From contig JBIOIY010000007.1 in NCBI GenBank assembly GCA_044450345.1, forward strand, positions 1 to 64,000: DNA of 64,000 nt. Direction: 5' to 3'. Of this stretch, positions 1-17,916 are shown piece by piece (position 1 is the stretch's first letter; each line of letters opens with the position of its first letter). Position numbers and translations under genes: made by a program. This DNA is from Thermodesulfovibrionales bacterium (lineage in GTDB: Bacteria > Nitrospirota > Thermodesulfovibrionia > Thermodesulfovibrionales > UBA6898). Under the pieces are notes generated by a model. The model made no database searches. It was not told the origin of the DNA and saw only the letters and a program-made list of their open reading frames with translations.

Positions 1-201
1 ATCGGAGTAGCCGCCGACAATATAGGTAGTAGCCGCCTGGAGCAGCACCATTATACTGAAGGCCAAACCGAGTTTTTCCACCCCGCCGCTGAGCTTCGCG
101 ACCTGAAGCACATAAAAAGGGCCGATGAATCCCATGACAACTGCCCAGATGGAGCTCACACTCGTGAATATGCGGAGATTCCTTTCATTCGTCGTGATCA
201 A
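1..201 (-). CDS. MFS transporter, N-terminal part (runs off window edge; not in ORF track)
   Basis: Manual translation from TTG at 201 (overlaps rSAM stop): MITTNERNLRIFTSVSSIWAVVMGFIGPFYVLQVAKLSGGVEKLGLAFSIMVLLQAATTYIVGGYSD; two TM helices ending at the start of MFS motif A (GxxSD). Confidence 0.75.
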   Translation of the reverse strand, partial: MITTNERNLRIFTSVSSIWAVVMGFIGPFYVLQVAKLSGGVEKLGLAFSIMVLLQAATTYIVGGYSD

Positions 202-1499
202 TCGCCGGTCTCCGGCATGTATTTTATGTCCTGTCCGACAAGGGTCTCAAGTGTTGCATCCAGATAAGGCTTTTTGCAATCGGTCTCGTGAATGTTTCCG
301 TCTCTCAGGACCTTCATAAACCTGCATCCCCCAAAACAGAGCGGCAGGTATTCGCAGTCAAGGCATTGCCCGTTCTTCCAGACATCAAGAGCATGAGACT
401 CATGAATTTCGAATAAACCTTCTCTGAGGTTTCCTGCAGCAAACCCCTCCCACCCGATAAACCCGGGGCATTTGTAGATCGTCCCGTCATAACTCACCAC
501 AACATCATTCGTCAGCCCTATCATACAAGGGGCGGGAAGGATTTTAGGGGTCTTGAACCCCCGCTTAAGGATCTCCTCCCTAAGAAAAAGGGTGGCCTTG
601 AATATCCAGGGTTCATTAATCGATTCGCTGCCGTCCCTGAATTCCGGAAGTGCAAACCTCCCGCCCGGCTTTACGACAGGATCAAATTTGACGATGAGAA
701 ACTTCTCCGGCGATAGACCCTCTGCGATGAGATAATCAAGGAGTTCGGGAAAACTCGTGTAGTTCTCCTCGGTATAGTTGCCGCCGATCTGGATGCTCAG
801 GATATCATATACCTCTTTAATGTTCTTTACGATCGTTTCGAAGGTCCCGCTCCCGGATTTGAAAGGTCGAAAGGAATTGTGGTTGTCCTTTGGACCATCG
901 AGCGTTATCTTTGCACTCTTCATCCCCAGGGCTGCAAGCTTCTTCGCTCTGGCCCGCGTCAATAGGGTTCCGTTCGTTACAAGATTGAAGGAGTATGTGA
1001 GCCCCCTGCCTTCAGACAATGATTTCAGTCTCTTAGAGACCCTCGTGATATCGTCAAAGCTTAAGAGGGGCTCACCCCCGTAGAAGTCGACATGCACGTC
1101 TTTGCCCTGAGAGAGGGCATGTTTTTCCAGAAAATCTGTCAGAAGCCCCAGGGTCTCCGTGGACATATAGTGCTTCCCCTTCATGTTTCCTTCATAGCAA
1201 TAGGTGCAGCGCAGGTTACAATCGAGGTTCATAACTACAATGGCATTGAATCTTCTCGCGCGTTTGTTGATGTCATCAATAAGACCTTGCATTTCCCTTA
1301 TTTCTTCATCCCTGTCAGAAACTAAAAAACCGAGTTCAGATAGAATCTTCCGATCCGAGGGCTCCAGCTCTCCCTTTTCTATTTGCTCAAGCGCGGTCTT
1401 AGGCAAGAGAATCGTTGATGCCCGCCTGGTGGAATAAAGGACCAGGTAGTCGGGATCATCTTCATAAGTATATGTCTTAATATATCTGGATAATTGCAT
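198..1499 (-). CDS. Radical SAM/SPASM peptide maturase (geopeptide-maturase-like)
   Basis: CNLRCTYC, FYGGEP, VTNGT; SPASM cysteines C-x...-YKC-...CLDCEYLPLCFGGC...C; N-terminal RRE-like region. Start taken at MQLSRY (1499) because the upstream ATG at 1535 lies within a terminator hairpin. Confidence 0.9.
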   Translation of the reverse strand: MQLSRYIKTYTYEDDPDYLVLYSTRRASTILLPKTALEQIEKGELEPSDRKILSELGFLVSDRDEEIREMQGLIDDINKRARRFNAIVVMNLDCNLRCTYCYEGNMKGKHYMSTETLGLLTDFLEKHALSQGKDVHVDFYGGEPLLSFDDITRVSKRLKSLSEGRGLTYSFNLVTNGTLLTRARAKKLAALGMKSAKITLDGPKDNHNSFRPFKSGSGTFETIVKNIKEVYDILSIQIGGNYTEENYTSFPELLDYLIAEGLSPEKFLIVKFDPVVKPGGRFALPEFRDGSESINEPWIFKATLFLREEILKRGFKTPKILPAPCMIGLTNDVVVSYDGTIYKCPGFIGWEGFAAGNLREGLFEIHESHALDVWKNGQCLDCEYLPLCFGGCRFMKVLRDGNIHETDCKKPYLDATLETLVGQDIKYMPETGD

Positions 1500-1507
1500 T
1501 GCCTTTG

Positions 1508-1533
1508 AAAAAAGAGGGGGAGTTATCTCCCCC
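1508..1533 (-). terminator. Intrinsic terminator/attenuator between precursor and maturase
   Basis: GGGGGAG-N4-CTCCCCC stem (1516-1533) followed by TCTTTTTT on the - strand. Confidence 0.7.
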
Positions 1534-1559
1534 ATCGAGTAAATCTTAAACTCAGCTCT

Positions 1560-1658
1560 CTACCATCTTAACGGCACGAAGGACCCGTAGCAGCAGACAC
1601 CTAATGGACCAGACGACTCCTTTACCCCTTTGCTGAGGACGACTATCGCCTTTTTCAT
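1560..1658 (-). CDS. Putative RiPP precursor peptide, 32 aa (not in ORF track)
   Basis: MKKAIVVLSKGVKESSGPLGVCCYGSFVPLRW*, strong SD GAGGAGG upstream, directly upstream of the rSAM/SPASM gene, Cys-Cys in the C-terminal core. Confidence 0.85.
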   Translation of the reverse strand: MKKAIVVLSKGVKESSGPLGVCCYGSFVPLRW

Positions 1659-1743
1659 CTTTTCCTCCTCTCATATGATCTCAGAATACCTCCGATGGAG
1701 GCCCTATCGTTTATTTTTTCCAAAATGGGACGATCTCCTATTT

Positions 1744-3654
1744 CTATATCTTAAGCCGCAGTCCTGCCTCGACCCATCTTCTGGGGTTCTTGAAGGCATC
1801 CACCAGATATTGAGAGCCGTTAAAGATATTGTGGGCTGTGAAGAAGAGCTCCGCGTTTCTTTTACCAAAAGAGAGGACCTTTTTAGTGAGGCTAAAGTCC
1901 CATATTATAGAGTTATACTGAGCATTGAGTGCCGAATCCGCGTTCCACCAGATATAATGGCCCTTAAGCAAAGCTCTGAGCGATTTGTTGTCGTTGTAAT
2001 GGATCCCCACATCATAGGTATAACGGGGGACGTCCAGCAGTTCTTCTCCGGTATCTCTATCGGTGGCATCGGTAAAGGCAACACCCGCAGAAATGGAGAC
2101 ATTATAGACCGGCACTGTTTTCAGCTCAAACTCGAAACCCTGTCTCCTCTGTTTTCCCTGGTTGACAGCCGTAAATGTCCCGTCACTCAAGGTCTCATTG
2201 AAAAGTGCATCAGTTATTTCATGCCTGAACGCTGTGCCCTTCAACCAGAGGTATTTTAGAACAGTTGATTCGATACCGGCCTGTACAGACCATACCTTCT
2301 CCATATGTAGGTCGGGATTCGGGACAGAGAAGGTACCAGTGCCGAAGGTCGCTGAAAGAGGAGGGGTACTGAACCCTCTTGCTCCAATGGCCCTCAGCAT
2401 CGTTTTTTCACCAAGATTATAGGTCACCCCCAGACTCGGGCTCACGAAGCTGCCGTTGGTACTCGTATGATCATACCTGATGCCTGGAGTGAAGGCGAAC
2501 TTGGCGGCTGTCATCGTGTCATTCACAAATACCGCCCACTTGCCAAGGCTCTGTTTTCCCCCGGTAATATTATTTGACTCAAGTTCCCCATAGTCATAGT
2601 CAAAACCAGAAACCACATCATGAATGCTGTTTTTCCATGTGAACTTGAGGCTCCCGCCGTTGTTCTTATCGTCATAATTGCTTGCCGATAGGATTTCCCC
2701 AGTACTGAGGCTGTTATTGATATGTTCTGCACGCTGACGCGAGGTCCTCAAAGATGCATTAAGGTCTGCGGTATCGGTCAGTGAATAATTAAACGAAAGC
2801 GTAGAAAAAAGATACTCGAAGGCGTTGCCGAAGGAGAGATCAACGGCTGGATACTGCCCCTCTCCCCTTGTCCCCTGGTTATAGCCAAAGGTGAAGGCGA
2901 CGTTGGCCTTTGACGAAACATCCCACTTTAATTTCGAATAAATATTGTTTGAGTAAAAAGAGGTGTTGGGTCTTAACCCGTTTGAAACAAGATTTCCGCC
3001 ATACAGGTAATAGGAAAGACTCTCCACCTTCCCCGAGACCTCAGCCCTGTAATCTCCCGTGTTCCTCTCTCCGTAAGACGCGGAGAGCATTCCTCCCGCC
3101 TTCCGTGATCCATCGCCACCCTTTGTTATGATGTGAATTATCCCGCCCAGTGACGAACCCCATGCAGAGGAGGCCGGCCCCTTGATTATCTCGATCCTAT
3201 CGATAATTTGGGCGGGGACAGCGGCAATGTCGGCGAAGCTGTCTGAGAGGTTATTGAGTGTTACATCATCGATTATCACAATTGCATGCCTGAATTCCGA
3301 GCCCTGTATCCGGGCGGTATCAGCGCTTCCGGGGCCGCCCCGCGAGTCTACCTGAACGCCGGTTATATTAAAGAGGACATCGGCCAGCGTATGTGCGTTC
3401 ATCTCCTCTATGTCTGCGGCTGTGATTACGGTCATGTTCTCGGCGACGTGGGAGATGAGTTTAGGATTCCTCGTGGGAGTCACTACGAGATCTTTCTCGC
3501 CGTAGAACATGTAAAGCGTATTGGTTTCATCTTCAGGCTGTGCCCAGGCATCAGAGATGAATGAAACAGAAAAGGCGAGAAGACAGAGGGCCATTATTTT
3601 TTTTATTAATTGGTCACCGTTCACAAAGTTTGATATAGTATGTGTAGTTGGCAT
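1744..3654 (-). CDS. TonB-dependent outer membrane receptor (BtuB-like plug + barrel)
   Basis: Signal peptide, VVTPTR, IDRIEIIKGPASSAWG..GGIIHIITK plug motif, C-terminal NIFN...PRRWVEAGLRLKI. True start may be downstream (e.g. 3594). Confidence 0.9.
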   Translation of the reverse strand: MPTTHTISNFVNGDQLIKKIMALCLLAFSVSFISDAWAQPEDETNTLYMFYGEKDLVVTPTRNPKLISHVAENMTVITAADIEEMNAHTLADVLFNITGVQVDSRGGPGSADTARIQGSEFRHAIVIIDDVTLNNLSDSFADIAAVPAQIIDRIEIIKGPASSAWGSSLGGIIHIITKGGDGSRKAGGMLSASYGERNTGDYRAEVSGKVESLSYYLYGGNLVSNGLRPNTSFYSNNIYSKLKWDVSSKANVAFTFGYNQGTRGEGQYPAVDLSFGNAFEYLFSTLSFNYSLTDTADLNASLRTSRQRAEHINNSLSTGEILSASNYDDKNNGGSLKFTWKNSIHDVVSGFDYDYGELESNNITGGKQSLGKWAVFVNDTMTAAKFAFTPGIRYDHTSTNGSFVSPSLGVTYNLGEKTMLRAIGARGFSTPPLSATFGTGTFSVPNPDLHMEKVWSVQAGIESTVLKYLWLKGTAFRHEITDALFNETLSDGTFTAVNQGKQRRQGFEFELKTVPVYNVSISAGVAFTDATDRDTGEELLDVPRYTYDVGIHYNDNKSLRALLKGHYIWWNADSALNAQYNSIIWDFSLTKKVLSFGKRNAELFFTAHNIFNGSQYLVDAFKNPRRWVEAGLRLKI

Positions 3655-3698
3655 ATAACTTATTGCGTTTAAGCTAACTATATAAGAAATATTGCCTC

Positions 3699-4619
3699 TT
3701 GTCTACTATGGGGAAATTTGATTTGCGAAAGTATTTCATACTAATATTTCTTTTTTTACTTACTTTCGAGCACGCCTATGCGGGCCAAAAGAGCGTACTC
3801 ATAGTCCAAAGCAGCAAGATAGGGCCTTACAACGAGGCGGTCGAAGGCTTCAAGAGCAGATGTCAGTGCACTGCAAAGGAGTTGGTCCTTTCAGATGCCG
3901 AAGGGCTAAACATATTCCGGGAAATCCGCTCATTCCAACCCGATGTCATTCTCGCCGTGGGGATCAACGCGCTTCTTAGGCTTAAAGCGATCAAAGATGT
4001 TCCCATCGTTTATGCTATGGTCTCCAACCCAGAGTCTATACATTTAGCGGGTGCCAACATTACGGGTGTCAGCATGAATATAGCGCCTGAAAAGCAGTTA
4101 TCCCTCCTTCAATTGGCCTTCCCCGGCCTCAAAAAGATTGGTCTTCTCTACAACCCTCTTAAATCCGGGGGGTTCGTCGAAAAAGCACTCGCATCATCGA
4201 GGGACATGTCGATAAAAATCATTGTAAAGGAAATCCATCATCCCATGGATGTTCCTCTGACAATTAACAGTCTCAAGGACAAAATAGACGCGTTCTGGAT
4301 GATACCCGACTCAACGGTTTTCTCACCAGAGACCGTAGAATATCTCTTCCTCTTTTCCTTTGAGAACAAGATACCTGTCTTGACCTTTTCGGAGAACTAC
4401 CTGTCAATGGGCGCGGTAATGTCCGCAAATATAGATGCAAGAGATATCGGGAAGCAGGCCGGAGAAATGGTAGCGAAGATCCTGTCGGGGGCCAATGTTG
4501 CGGATATCCCAAGTGTTGATGCCCGGAAAGCCAACGTCACGGTAAATCTGATAACGGCAAAAAAAATAGGGAGACCCCTCAGCAACGAGACCCTTTCCCG
4601 GTGGAAGGTAATCAACTGA
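3699..4619 (+). CDS. Orphan ABC transporter substrate-binding protein (ABC_sub_bind-like)
   Basis: Signal peptide; PIVYAMV, ITGV, KKIGLLYNP, DAFWMIPDSTV, IGKQAGEM..KIL, VNLITAKKIG motifs; no permease/ATPase adjacent. Confidence 0.8.
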   Translation: MSTMGKFDLRKYFILIFLFLLTFEHAYAGQKSVLIVQSSKIGPYNEAVEGFKSRCQCTAKELVLSDAEGLNIFREIRSFQPDVILAVGINALLRLKAIKDVPIVYAMVSNPESIHLAGANITGVSMNIAPEKQLSLLQLAFPGLKKIGLLYNPLKSGGFVEKALASSRDMSIKIIVKEIHHPMDVPLTINSLKDKIDAFWMIPDSTVFSPETVEYLFLFSFENKIPVLTFSENYLSMGAVMSANIDARDIGKQAGEMVAKILSGANVADIPSVDARKANVTVNLITAKKIGRPLSNETLSRWKVIN

Positions 4620-5174
4620 GATGAAAGCGAAATTAATCGGCGCTTTGAGAATAATCGGCCAGAGCTTCGGTACAAAGGTAGTTTCACTTTTGTAGTACGC
4701 TTTGATTTCAGGAAGGGCTTTCTTCTCCTGATGAAATCATAGTCTCAATTGACAGCCTTGCGTGTGCGCAGTATAGGAGGGAGTACACGACAAGGGTCTA
4801 AGCCCTCGTTGCTTTTTTTCGGGAAGTTATATTCTTGAGCTCTTCTTCAGATTGCTCTTGCAGCCACTACTCTTGTTTTGCCCACAGATCTTAGGCTCTG
4901 GATTCGGGAATGAAATACATTAAATGCTAATCACCGTATAGCAAAGAATGTGGAGTCTGACATTGCAGAAAACCCGACCCCTCACTGAAGGAGAATGGGT
5001 TGTTTCCCAATTTTCTATCCCAAAGCGCTCAAATAGCATAAGGACTTGAAAGGGGCGGGATTAACACCGGAACAGCAAAAATGTTGGGGAATCCGCTGGA
5101 ATCCGCTGGAGGAGTGGATAAACATTAATTAAATCGGTAAAATGTATTCCACAGTACGGAGAAAGGAGCTAAAC

Positions 5175-5522
5175 ATGAAACTGTTTACGTTGGAAGAGAG
5201 ACAGTACGAATTGGACAAAGAACTAAACCGTATTGTAGACATTACCATCAAAGAATATCAGCCTGAGAAAATAGTCTTATTCGGCTCAATCGCAGAAGGG
5301 ACAACTCACGAATGGAGCGACATCGACATGCTGATAATAAAGGATACCTCTCTGCGGCCTATTGATAGGTGTCTTGAACTGTTCCGGCTTATTCAGCCCA
5401 AAGTCGGGGTAGATCTCTTCATTTATACTCCTGATGAATTCAAAACCCTCTTGGATGAAAAATACTCATTTCTGCTCAATATTCTGAAAAGAGGCAAGGT
5501 GATGTATGAAAAAGGAGACTGA
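5175..5522 (+). CDS. Minimal nucleotidyltransferase (MNT) antitoxin
   Basis: LFGSIAEG...SDIDMLII motif; SD AAGGAG before ATG 5175. Confidence 0.85.
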   Translation: MKLFTLEERQYELDKELNRIVDITIKEYQPEKIVLFGSIAEGTTHEWSDIDMLIIKDTSLRPIDRCLELFRLIQPKVGVDLFIYTPDEFKTLLDEKYSFLLNILKRGKVMYEKGD

Positions 5523-5895
5523 AGAATGGATAAGAATTGCCATTGAGGACTTCCAGTCTGCCAAATACCTGTTAGAGAAATCCCTTTACAGGATGGTCTG
5601 CTATCATGCCCAGCAGACCGTTGAAAAACTGTCCAAAGCCATCCTCGTGCAGCACGATATAGATATTCCGCGCACACATAACCTTCTTGATCTGAATAAT
5701 GCAATAAAAAAACTTGGATATAATGTCCCTCTTTCTGATGAGGACACAGTCTTTTTGAACAGTATCTACCGATCGCGTTATCCATTTGATGCAGGGCTGC
5801 TCCCCCACGGGGAGCCGACAGAGAAAGATGCTGAAAAGGCATTAGACATCGCGAAACAAATGACAGCCTGGTCCAGGGAGATTTTACAATTTTAG
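5506..5895 (+). CDS. HEPN domain protein (toxin of MNT/HEPN pair)
   Basis: W..IA.ED, CYHAQQ.VEK..KA, THNL, SRYP motifs; overlaps the MNT gene. Confidence 0.85.
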   Translation: MKKETEEWIRIAIEDFQSAKYLLEKSLYRMVCYHAQQTVEKLSKAILVQHDIDIPRTHNLLDLNNAIKKLGYNVPLSDEDTVFLNSIYRSRYPFDAGLLPHGEPTEKDAEKALDIAKQMTAWSREILQF

Positions 5896-8047: not shown

Positions 8048-8130
8048 AAGATTTATTTCTCCTTTTTCTTTTTGCTAATTTTCTTTCTGCTAGGATGCAG
8101 AAAGAACCTTCAAACGTTAGCTTACAGTTG

Positions 8131-16380: not shown

Positions 16381-17916
16381 ATGAAATTTGGAATCCTTGC
16401 AATCCTTCCTTTATTTATTCCTTCCACTGCATGGGCTTTTGTGCCGCACTCCTACGCAGAGACCTACATCCATCAGATGGGGCATATATACTTCATCTTC
16501 TCATGCATATTCATTATATGGGTAATCAGGCATCATAATTTACAGGATAAAAGGGGCTGGCGATATATATTCCTCTCCGAAATATTTTTCATTCTTTGGA
16601 ATATGGACGCTTTTGTCGGCCATCTAACAGAATTCTGGATCAAGCCTTCACAGATAACCGGTGGGAGTGCGGGCTGGGATTACTTCTTCAGACATGTTTC
16701 ATTACAGGGCTGGGAATCCCTTTATTATGTGACGAGATACGATCATTTTTTGTGTATCCCCGCGATGTTCTTTTTTGTTCTGGGACTAAGAGAGCTTTTG
16801 GCGGAAGAGGAAAAAAGCCCGGTTGCCGCTGTCCTCTTGCCTTTGTTTCCCATCATGTTGGCCGACATGGCAGGCGGCCTTGTCATGATCGTTTTATCAC
16901 TGATGTGCCTTTATACCGCCGTAAAACTTTACAACACAAATAGAGAAAACACCCTCTGGAACTATCTGTTGTGGCTTTCGTTGGCACATTTTGTCTTTTC
17001 CTTTTCGCGGTCAGCTGGTCATATCCTCCAGCGTGTTCTCATACCAACCGGTTACGGACACATTTGGAGGTATCTGGAGCCATATAGTGGAAGTCTGAAT
17101 ACCTTCACCTTTATCGTGATAGGCTCTGTGAGCCTGTTTTTCTTCAGGACGTATGAGACCTATCTGAAGATATCGGATGACAACAGAAAAATAGAGGGCA
17201 TCAATGCGGATCTGACGGAACTTAACCAGGAGCTTGAGACGATGGTTGCAGAAAGGACGATGAGCCTCATGGCGTTGACTGTGGCCGACAGGGTAAGAAA
17301 CCCTGCCGCAGTGATTGGTTGGACGTGCAAAAAGATCCTTGAAAAGGAAGGGGACCCCGAGATAATTAAGGAAGGACTGAAAGATGTGCTCGATGAATCG
17401 AAAAAGCTGGAGTCCATAGTCAGAGACTTTGAGACGCTGTTGAAGAGCAAGCAGTCCATGTTCAGGTATGAGGATATAAATGAGATTGTAAGAGGGATTG
17501 TCCCTATTGTGGAAAAAGAGACCGAAGAGAGGGGCATAAGGTTCGATATTAATCTCTCTAACGATCCCCTGAAGATAAATACTCAAAAGAATTTGCTGAG
17601 GGCGGCAATTTTCCATCTTGTCAGAAATTCCATTGAGGCGACACCCCAGGGCGGCAGAGTAGCAGTTACAACCGCCGGAGACGGCGACAAGGTCATCCTG
17701 ACGGTTTCAGATACGGGTTCGGGCGTTCCAGAGGAGGACATCGATAAAATATTTGACCCATTTTACAGCACCAAGCGTCTCAGGTTCGGAATGGGGCTGC
17801 CATTGGTGAAACAGATAATATCGGAGCATCTTGGGGAGATAATAATTGAAACTGCCCCCGGAAAGGGCACGACGTTCAAGATACTGTTTCCGGTCAGATG
17901 GCTCGGGAAGAAGTGA
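16381..17916 (+). CDS. Multi-TM sensor histidine kinase-like protein lacking the phospho-acceptor His
   Basis: HATPase boxes (LVRNSIEA, DTGSG, IFDPFYSTK, GMGL, GKGTTF); H-box reads VADRVRNP. Confidence 0.8.
   Translation: MKFGILAILPLFIPSTAWAFVPHSYAETYIHQMGHIYFIFSCIFIIWVIRHHNLQDKRGWRYIFLSEIFFILWNMDAFVGHLTEFWIKPSQITGGSAGWDYFFRHVSLQGWESLYYVTRYDHFLCIPAMFFFVLGLRELLAEEEKSPVAAVLLPLFPIMLADMAGGLVMIVLSLMCLYTAVKLYNTNRENTLWNYLLWLSLAHFVFSFSRSAGHILQRVLIPTGYGHIWRYLEPYSGSLNTFTFIVIGSVSLFFFRTYETYLKISDDNRKIEGINADLTELNQELETMVAERTMSLMALTVADRVRNPAAVIGWTCKKILEKEGDPEIIKEGLKDVLDESKKLESIVRDFETLLKSKQSMFRYEDINEIVRGIVPIVEKETEERGIRFDINLSNDPLKINTQKNLLRAAIFHLVRNSIEATPQGGRVAVTTAGDGDKVILTVSDTGSGVPEEDIDKIFDPFYSTKRLRFGMGLPLVKQIISEHLGEIIIETAPGKGTTFKILFPVRWLGKK

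Follow-up and report, generated by a model that had tools for sequence, protein, structure and literature searches.

The closest described counterpart of the locus reported here is the geopeptide system of NCBIfam, in which a radical S-adenosylmethionine (SAM) maturase family (TIGR04280, a hypothetical equivalog) is paired with a short precursor peptide family (TIGR04229), and whose name is computational. In the open literature, with subscription journals outside the coverage, no paper was found on 'geopeptide' or TIGR04280, and none joining radical SAM, Geobacter and ranthipeptide; among titles and the opening parts of abstracts, none looked relevant to a radical SAM/SPASM ribosomally synthesised and post-translationally modified peptide (RiPP) with a TonB-dependent receptor, a solute-binding protein and a histidine kinase, so that no published product, chemistry or function was found for the family. 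Among enzymes with solved structures, the nearest are the CteB/SCIFF-type maturases of thioether peptides (sacti- or ranthipeptides; PDB 5WGG, 5WHY). We analysed positions 1 to 64,000 (forward strand) of contig JBIOIY010000007.1 from the Thermodesulfovibrionales bacterium assembly GCA_044450345.1, a 64,000-nucleotide stretch referred to below as the window, in which a 32-codon open reading frame (ORF) at 1560..1658 lies directly upstream of a radical SAM/SPASM maturase gene at 198..1499, both on the minus strand. The pair is a genuine, unannotated member of this database-named RiPP family. For its function, we favour a reading, to which we assign a probability of roughly 45%, in which the modified peptide would be exported, re-imported across the outer membrane and sensed.

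The 433-residue maturase matched TIGR04280 ('geopeptide radical SAM maturase') at 612.9 bits (cut-off 400) over model positions 1-427 of 428, in a search against NCBIfam models of the kind that a first-pass annotation of this DNA had suggested as a check, and scored 612.7 bits when the whole genome was searched. Since the match begins at residue 13 of the longer ORF listed from 1535, the additional residues of that ORF were treated as an upstream extension. Further families, namely TIGR04463, CefB, PapB, Clo7bot, nif11-type, CcpM and the SCIFF maturase, all of which act on Cys-rich peptides, scored far under their cut-offs (105.7 against 425 for the SCIFF model, TIGR03974), and Pfam Radical_SAM gave 55.9 bits. 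The CxxxCxxC cysteines (C94, C98, C101) and seven SPASM cysteines (C325, C344, C379, C382, C388, C392, C408) were invariant in 12 aligned homologues, which bears out the earlier description of a CxxxCxxC/SPASM enzyme.

An AlphaFold2 model of the maturase (mean predicted local distance difference test score, pLDDT, 86.9; predicted template modelling score, pTM, 0.86) showed three strands followed by helices in residues 1-80, and its best Foldseek match was CteB (5WHY_B, E 3.4e-21, TM 0.67), which was also the closest solved relative by sequence (E 6.2e-32). Pfam PqqD had no match on the enzyme at E up to 1. Re-alignment with VIA covered model residues 4-426 for CteB (Z 25.5, root-mean-square deviation 4.9, 383 aligned) and 1-426 for TigE (Z 24.1), but only 82-427 for anSME, an enzyme without a peptide-recognition (RRE) domain. 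Because the CteB and TigE alignments run the full length, that of anSME starts at residue 82, and the cysteines are invariant, the predicted architecture is an RRE-like domain (approximately residues 1-80), a radical SAM core and a seven-Cys SPASM domain, the type to which the enzyme had previously been assigned. It thus resembles the CteB/SCIFF enzymes in domain order, with their N-terminal peptide-binding domain included in the whole-length fold match, and in having a Cys-rich substrate, but differs from them in sequence (~21-23% identity) and in its substrate, where two adjacent cysteines and a nine-residue tail contrast with the six-Cys pattern of SCIFF.

The precursor gene (1560..1658, minus strand) consists of an ATG, 32 codons in all, and a TAG stop, and encodes a conserved leader motif, a Cys-Cys pair and a nine-residue tail. 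The first-pass annotation had put forward this ORF, missing from the gene track, as carrying a strong Shine-Dalgarno (SD) site and lying 60 bp from the enzyme; its coordinates and peptide were correct, the site GAGGAGG (1664..1670, read 1670-1664, minus strand) stands five nucleotides (nt) 5' of the ATG, and 60 nt separate the peptide stop from the maturase ATG at 1499. For a profile hidden Markov model (HMM), 63 upstream peptides were taken from other genomes, leaving out a close relative (locus L045), a wrong pick (L053) and three loci with doubtful starts (L048, L052, L086), and the model was searched against all 38,980 ORFs of 20-120 residues from the genome. Four matches were obtained, exactly the ORFs 5' of the four TIGR04280 paralogues, with the window ORF best (E 1.2e-13, 51.6 bits), followed by those on contigs C57 (7.9e-13), C67 (2.5e-12) and C9 (3e-9), and the next-ranked small ORF was at E 0.37. 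An overlapping ORF of 40 residues in another frame (1552..1674) was also considered, and was rejected because the family profile matches the 32-residue frame. The exact peptide was absent from a collection of ~15 billion predicted proteins, as would be consistent with a gene that gene callers overlook.

Codon changes among the three close paralogues and L045, although small in number, were mostly synonymous in leader codons 1-18 (10 synonymous and 1 non-synonymous for C57 against L045) and mostly non-synonymous in core codons 19-32 (1 synonymous and 9 non-synonymous for C67 against L045), which is the pattern of a RiPP leader and core. Together with a hydrophobic-run-plus-Gly motif that is conserved in the leaders of the family, this agrees with the division into leader and core suggested earlier. 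ORF 1560-1658 is confirmed as a real gene of the geopeptide-type precursor family, and its product is very probably the substrate of the adjoining TIGR04280 maturase.

A profile-based scan with one genome per species was run, and the best 80 of 572 relatives were kept as loci, from Nitrospirota, Geobacteraceae, Desulfobacterales, Deferribacteres, Nitrospinota and others. A conserved short ORF beside homologous maturases, which had been named as a check on the original proposal, was found: a Cys-Cys peptide lies upstream of the maturase in 73/80 loci, and of the other seven, four keep the leader with CxC, CxxCxC or a single Cys, and three have less than 75 nt of upstream sequence. Within the 700 nt upstream, 61 of 76 loci showed the leader-to-Cys-Cys pattern; by comparison, ~1.48 million codon positions elsewhere gave 6 matches. 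In a sample of the phylum, 32 of 301 genomes had a TIGR04280 match over the cut-off, and an upstream short ORF was present in 32 of the 34 loci examined (25 by a first script, 7 more by eye), with none within 1.5 kb upstream in L039 and L040. Leader distance follows maturase distance (partial r 0.26, p 0.0002, 35 loci).

A residue profile anchored on the Cys-Cys pair was compiled from 67 distinct peptides. The tail after the pair is 7-13 residues long (median 9). Counted among the 67, the favoured residues are Gly (41) at +2, Ala (27) at +3, Phe or Tyr (33) at +4, Pro (32) at +6 and Leu, Phe or Tyr (42) at +7, with Arg at +8 in 35 of 62, and a leader Gly stands 10 residues ahead of the pair in 40 of the 67. 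The window peptide, with G, F, P, L, R and W at +2, +4, +6, +7, +8 and +9 respectively, agrees with the profile at these six positions. In one subgroup of precursors (L014, L017, L018, L020, L024, L029, L037, L074, L092, L101, L110) a Lys-rich repeat leader of Ala/Thr-Lys-Lys-Lys units replaces the short leader before the Cys-Cys core, and in L061, L062 and L076 the precursor gene is present in two or three tandem copies 5' of a single maturase gene.

The curated precursor model behaved differently from the maturase model. TIGR04229 has 22 positions and a cut-off of 30 bits, which was reached by none of 65 related peptides (26 sub-threshold matches, the best at 25.5 bits), and within the genome it gave only 17.3 bits, upstream of the C9 maturase. 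The likeness to the TIGRFAM geopeptides that had been noted at first pass therefore held for the maturase and for the family profile, but not for TIGR04229, which the window peptide does not reach. The window locus thus shares with the NCBIfam system a full-length maturase match and a short Cys-Cys gene directly upstream, and its precursor gene is of the geopeptide kind yet outside what annotation pipelines catch. Since no peptide among the 65 reaches the cut-off, the model is too narrow, and such genes stay unannotated. The lack of a TIGR04229 match and of the exact peptide in any protein collection searched would also be expected if the ORF were a chance, untranslated frame in a leader region; this we consider extremely unlikely, given an HMM match confined to cassette ORFs, a frame and motif kept across several phyla despite divergent DNA, the excess of synonymous change in the leader, and the strong SD site. 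A search of sequencing runs listed no RNA run carrying this DNA, and only DNA runs with a small share of it, a result that has no bearing on expression.

Two local hairpins stand out in the RNA of this region, whose fold as a whole was not more stable than shuffles (z -0.71) and in which Rfam gave no family at E up to 1, except one chance-level match inside the maturase gene. The first, an intrinsic-terminator-like hairpin and T-run (1506..1533, minus strand; stem-loop 1533-1516, 7 bp, 6 GC), occupies the gap between the peptide and maturase genes and was the first-listed site of a terminator scan of 1-5200. Among the 59 loci whose peptide gene is no more than 160 nt from the enzyme gene, 46 have a hairpin and T-run at this place (1.7 expected from shuffles), with varying stem sequences; in the C9 paralogue, too, the stem differs and the hairpin is retained. 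It is probably an attenuator that would give a high peptide-to-enzyme ratio. The second, a short GC hairpin of CCUCC-loop-GGAGG type in the centroid fold (1688..1702, minus strand), lies between the receptor stop and the peptide SD site, is conserved in the paralogues and L045, and has a counterpart at the pre-SD place in 24 of 64 loci (4.0 expected from shuffles); it could have a role in RNA stability or processing. A strong SD site precedes 46 of 64 homologous peptide genes.

Upstream of the receptor gene, a sigma-70-like promoter match (3677..3705, minus strand; 10/12, a consensus match only) is conserved in the three close paralogues and L045. It belongs to an intergenic segment, 3640-3730 (minus strand), between the divergent receptor and binding-protein genes that is highly conserved among the same sequences (alignment A5), and the conserved part also includes an upstream block containing TTGCAAAT, which could be a regulator site. 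No Fur-box-like site stood out when the promoter region was read, without a systematic scan for metal-regulator sites. A sigma-54 promoter consensus, with up to 2 mismatches allowed, matched 20 times across the window against 26.8 expected. At the C9 locus, where the number of matches is at chance level, one -24/-12-like sequence with 2 mismatches (L042:11980-11995) follows the gene of a sigma-54 response regulator and precedes an amidohydrolase gene.

Directly upstream of the peptide gene and in the same direction lies a gene for a TonB-dependent receptor with Pfam Plug and beta-barrel domains (1744..3624, minus strand; ORF to 3654), whose start is probably the GTG at 3624, since conservation among the paralogues does not extend to the ATG at 3654 (alignment A5). 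Divergent from it is a gene for a PF04392 (ABC_sub_bind) periplasmic binding protein (3699..4619, plus strand; Pfam 128.3 bits), beside which no ABC permease or ATPase was seen in the window. Downstream of the maturase, the 5' part of a major facilitator superfamily (MFS) transporter gene (1..201, minus strand) is cut by the contig end and is 88% identical by tblastn to the MFS protein of L011, itself a Pfam MFS_1 match.

This arrangement recurs across the loci. Of the 76 loci whose upstream flank reaches 700 nt or more, 70 have the receptor on the same strand upstream, and among 43 full-flank loci a TonB-dependent receptor was found in 42, a transporter-less PF04392 homologue in 41, a homologue of the periplasmic part of a Cache-type kinase in 37, and an MFS gene directly downstream of the maturase in 10. 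Across the 80 loci, the binding-protein gene was found upstream in divergent orientation 43 times and downstream in colinear orientation 22 times. According to Table 1 of PMC10443332, solved PF04392 proteins bind Trp, Tyr or Phe. Aromatic residues are frequent in the geopeptide tails, which gives no more than a hint of a possible ligand.

A precursor, a maturase, a TonB receptor, a binding protein and an efflux-type MFS together resemble the methanobactin operons, in which a ribosomal peptide is encoded with a receptor (MbnT), a binding protein (MbnE) and an exporter. The peptide could on this model be a metallophore or nutrient shuttle, a secreted Cys-Cys peptide that binds a metal or another scarce solute and is brought back by way of the receptor and binding protein, with the kinase only regulating; two adjacent thiols are a plausible metal site, and TonB receptors classically import metal chelates. 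We judge this somewhat unlikely. The methanobactin maturase is MbnBC and not a radical SAM enzyme, and here a dedicated Cache kinase adjoins in most loci; the sampled loci showed no inner-membrane importer next to the binding protein; and the core varies strongly between close copies, with four cassettes in one genome, which would be unusual for a chelator with fixed ligand atoms. If the cysteines are converted to thioethers as in the nearest relatives, they would also be poor metal ligands. That the core varies, that a kinase is usually there and that no inner-membrane importer adjoins all favour sensing.

In this 3.19-Mb genome assembly (86 contigs, 91% complete), four TIGR04280 genes exceed the cut-off, one each on contigs C57 (17728-19166), C7 (the window), C67 (455-1894) and C9 (49137-50583), the highest copy number among the 301 sampled genomes of the phylum. 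The three further cassettes, like the conserved receptor, binding-protein and kinase context, are additions to the first-pass annotation. A short ORF with the shared leader and Cys-Cys pair stands before each of the four genes, although the C9 DNA is quite different; the other three cassettes are ~90% identical, with most of their differences in the peptide core. The contigs of these three similar cassettes all end inside the downstream MFS gene, for which reason the assembly appears to break at the repeat; contig C3 begins with the remainder of an MFS gene (C3:2-265). The paralogous genes are under purifying selection (ratio of non-synonymous to synonymous change, pN/pS: maturase 0.16-0.22, binding protein 0.28-0.33, receptor 0.11-0.16). 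Six PF04392 genes were found in the genome, four of them in cassettes, and the receptor and kinase-sensor subfamilies are confined to the cassettes. The C57 receptor gene (L043:7741-9641, corresponding to C57:15740-17640) matches the window receptor in two frames, with the pieces overlapping at 8049-8058, either through a frameshift or through an assembly error.

In the C9 cassette the order is receptor, peptide, maturase, binding protein, sCache_4-HAMP kinase and sigma-54-type response regulator, and at C57 a hybrid kinase adjoins the binding-protein gene. In L045 a kinase and response regulator follow the binding-protein gene, where the window has a nucleotidyltransferase/HEPN pair. The segment concerned (4620-5895) consists of a non-coding stretch and the pair itself (5142-5522 and 5506-5895), a toxin-antitoxin-like module. 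No kinase remnant was found by tblastn after the window binding-protein gene in the first 20 kb, apart from one unrelated catalytic-domain match at 17404-17895.

A hypervariable core on a conserved leader, with several cassettes per genome, is also typical of bacteriocin loci, and many radical SAM thioether peptides are antimicrobial, so the product might be a bacteriocin-like RiPP directed against competitors, with the receptor and binding protein serving immunity or self-sensing. This we regard as improbable: it is hard to see why a producer would carry a dedicated importer for its own toxin beside the toxin gene, the 16 sampled loci showed no immunity protein or peptidase-ABC exporter, and the kinase link is stronger than expected of a weapon. 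Slightly less probable still is a small cofactor derived from the peptide, comparable to pyrroloquinoline quinone (PQQ) or mycofactocin, for which the Cys-Cys part would be cross-linked and excised and the product scavenged by the receptor. PqqE-type RRE-radical SAM-SPASM enzymes do make cofactors from short peptides, and NCBIfam includes a PQQ TonB receptor family (NF041535), to which the window receptor scores 33 bits, far under the cut-off; but cofactor precursors are usually conserved throughout, while here the tail varies between close copies and four cassettes coexist, and no further tailoring enzymes were seen in the same 16 loci.

The favoured reading, in which the peptide is exported, re-imported and sensed, would proceed as follows. 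The RRE-like domain of the TIGR04280 enzyme would bind the N-terminal leader through its hydrophobic-run-plus-Gly motif, and the enzyme would then modify the C-terminal core, that is the Cys-Cys pair and the nine-residue tail. The analogy to CteB, PapB and SCIFF enzymes makes one or two thioether rings between Cys and carbon the most likely product. CteB we take, from the title of its PDB entry, to be a Cys-thioether-forming enzyme. A leaky terminator between the genes would keep the peptide in excess over the enzyme, and the product would be exported, with the downstream MFS protein as candidate exporter. The dedicated TonB-dependent receptor would re-import it across the outer membrane, and the transporter-less PF04392 protein would bind it in the periplasm. 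Finally, the product may act as a self-made signal read through the Cache-type histidine kinase, since the PF04392 protein adjoins such a kinase in most cassettes. The last step is similar to LuxP-LuxQ in that genes for a transporter-less periplasmic binding protein and for a membrane kinase with a periplasmic domain stand side by side; it differs in that the ligand here would be a radical SAM-modified peptide entering through a TonB receptor, and that the link is here one of gene neighbourhood. When the C57 binding protein (residues 21-298) was modelled in complex with the periplasmic part (42-196) of the adjacent kinase, using an alignment for each, the scores were 0.68, 0.24 and 0.24, with the median under the threshold, a result that speaks neither for nor against binding.

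Covariation of the core with its presumed partners was assessed by partial Mantel tests controlled for maturase distance, with the caveat that related loci are not independent. Given this kinship, we draw no firm conclusion from the correlations of the core in 30 loci (receptor r 0.27, p 0.0014; binding protein r 0.19, p 0.010), which in 35 loci fell to r ~0.16-0.17, p ~0.036 for both. In the divergent gene order (23 loci) only receptor covariation held (r 0.32, p 0.005), and in the colinear order (12 loci) it held with neither partner.

Several points weigh against the export-and-sensing reading. The chemistry, export, re-import, binding and sensing are all inferred steps, and the covariation of the core with receptor or binding protein is weak and differs between gene orders. 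At its starting point, the window peptide had no match to TIGR04229 at E up to 10, and Pfam SPASM scored 16.1 on the maturase, under its gathering cut-off of 21.5, even though none of the pattern's cysteines is missing; sampling the neighbours in 16 loci turned up no leader peptidase. At its end point, the window and C67 cassettes have no adjacent kinase, and the sigma-54 pattern had no match in window positions 1-5200, with none before the receptor or peptide gene, and 5 matches against 4.84 expected at the C9 locus, again with none 5' of either gene. No autoinduction loop is therefore visible in these two loci, and this, together with the kinase-less window cassette, weakens the case for sensing.

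The window locus is a clean, complete example of the system with a very short substrate, suited to heterologous co-expression, and the four natural variants in the genome allow core tolerance to be compared. The narrowness of TIGR04229 means that further precursor genes of this kind remain hidden from annotation. More broadly, and tentatively, diderm anaerobes (Nitrospirota, Geobacteraceae, Desulfobacterales and others) may communicate through a secreted, radical SAM-cyclised Cys-Cys peptide that re-enters by a dedicated TonB receptor, is captured by an orphan PF04392 protein and is read by a Cache kinase, a proposal we hold to be less likely than the reading of the single cassette. On this proposal, the four cassettes of the genome, with their different cores and two of them kinase-less, would fit several 'dialects', in which some cassettes might feed into, or be read through, the kinases of others. 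Peptide signalling of such a kind is well known in monoderm bacteria, and we know of no example in diderms. The near-constant link between receptor, binding protein and kinase makes the hypothesis of a peptide signal imported across the outer membrane testable.

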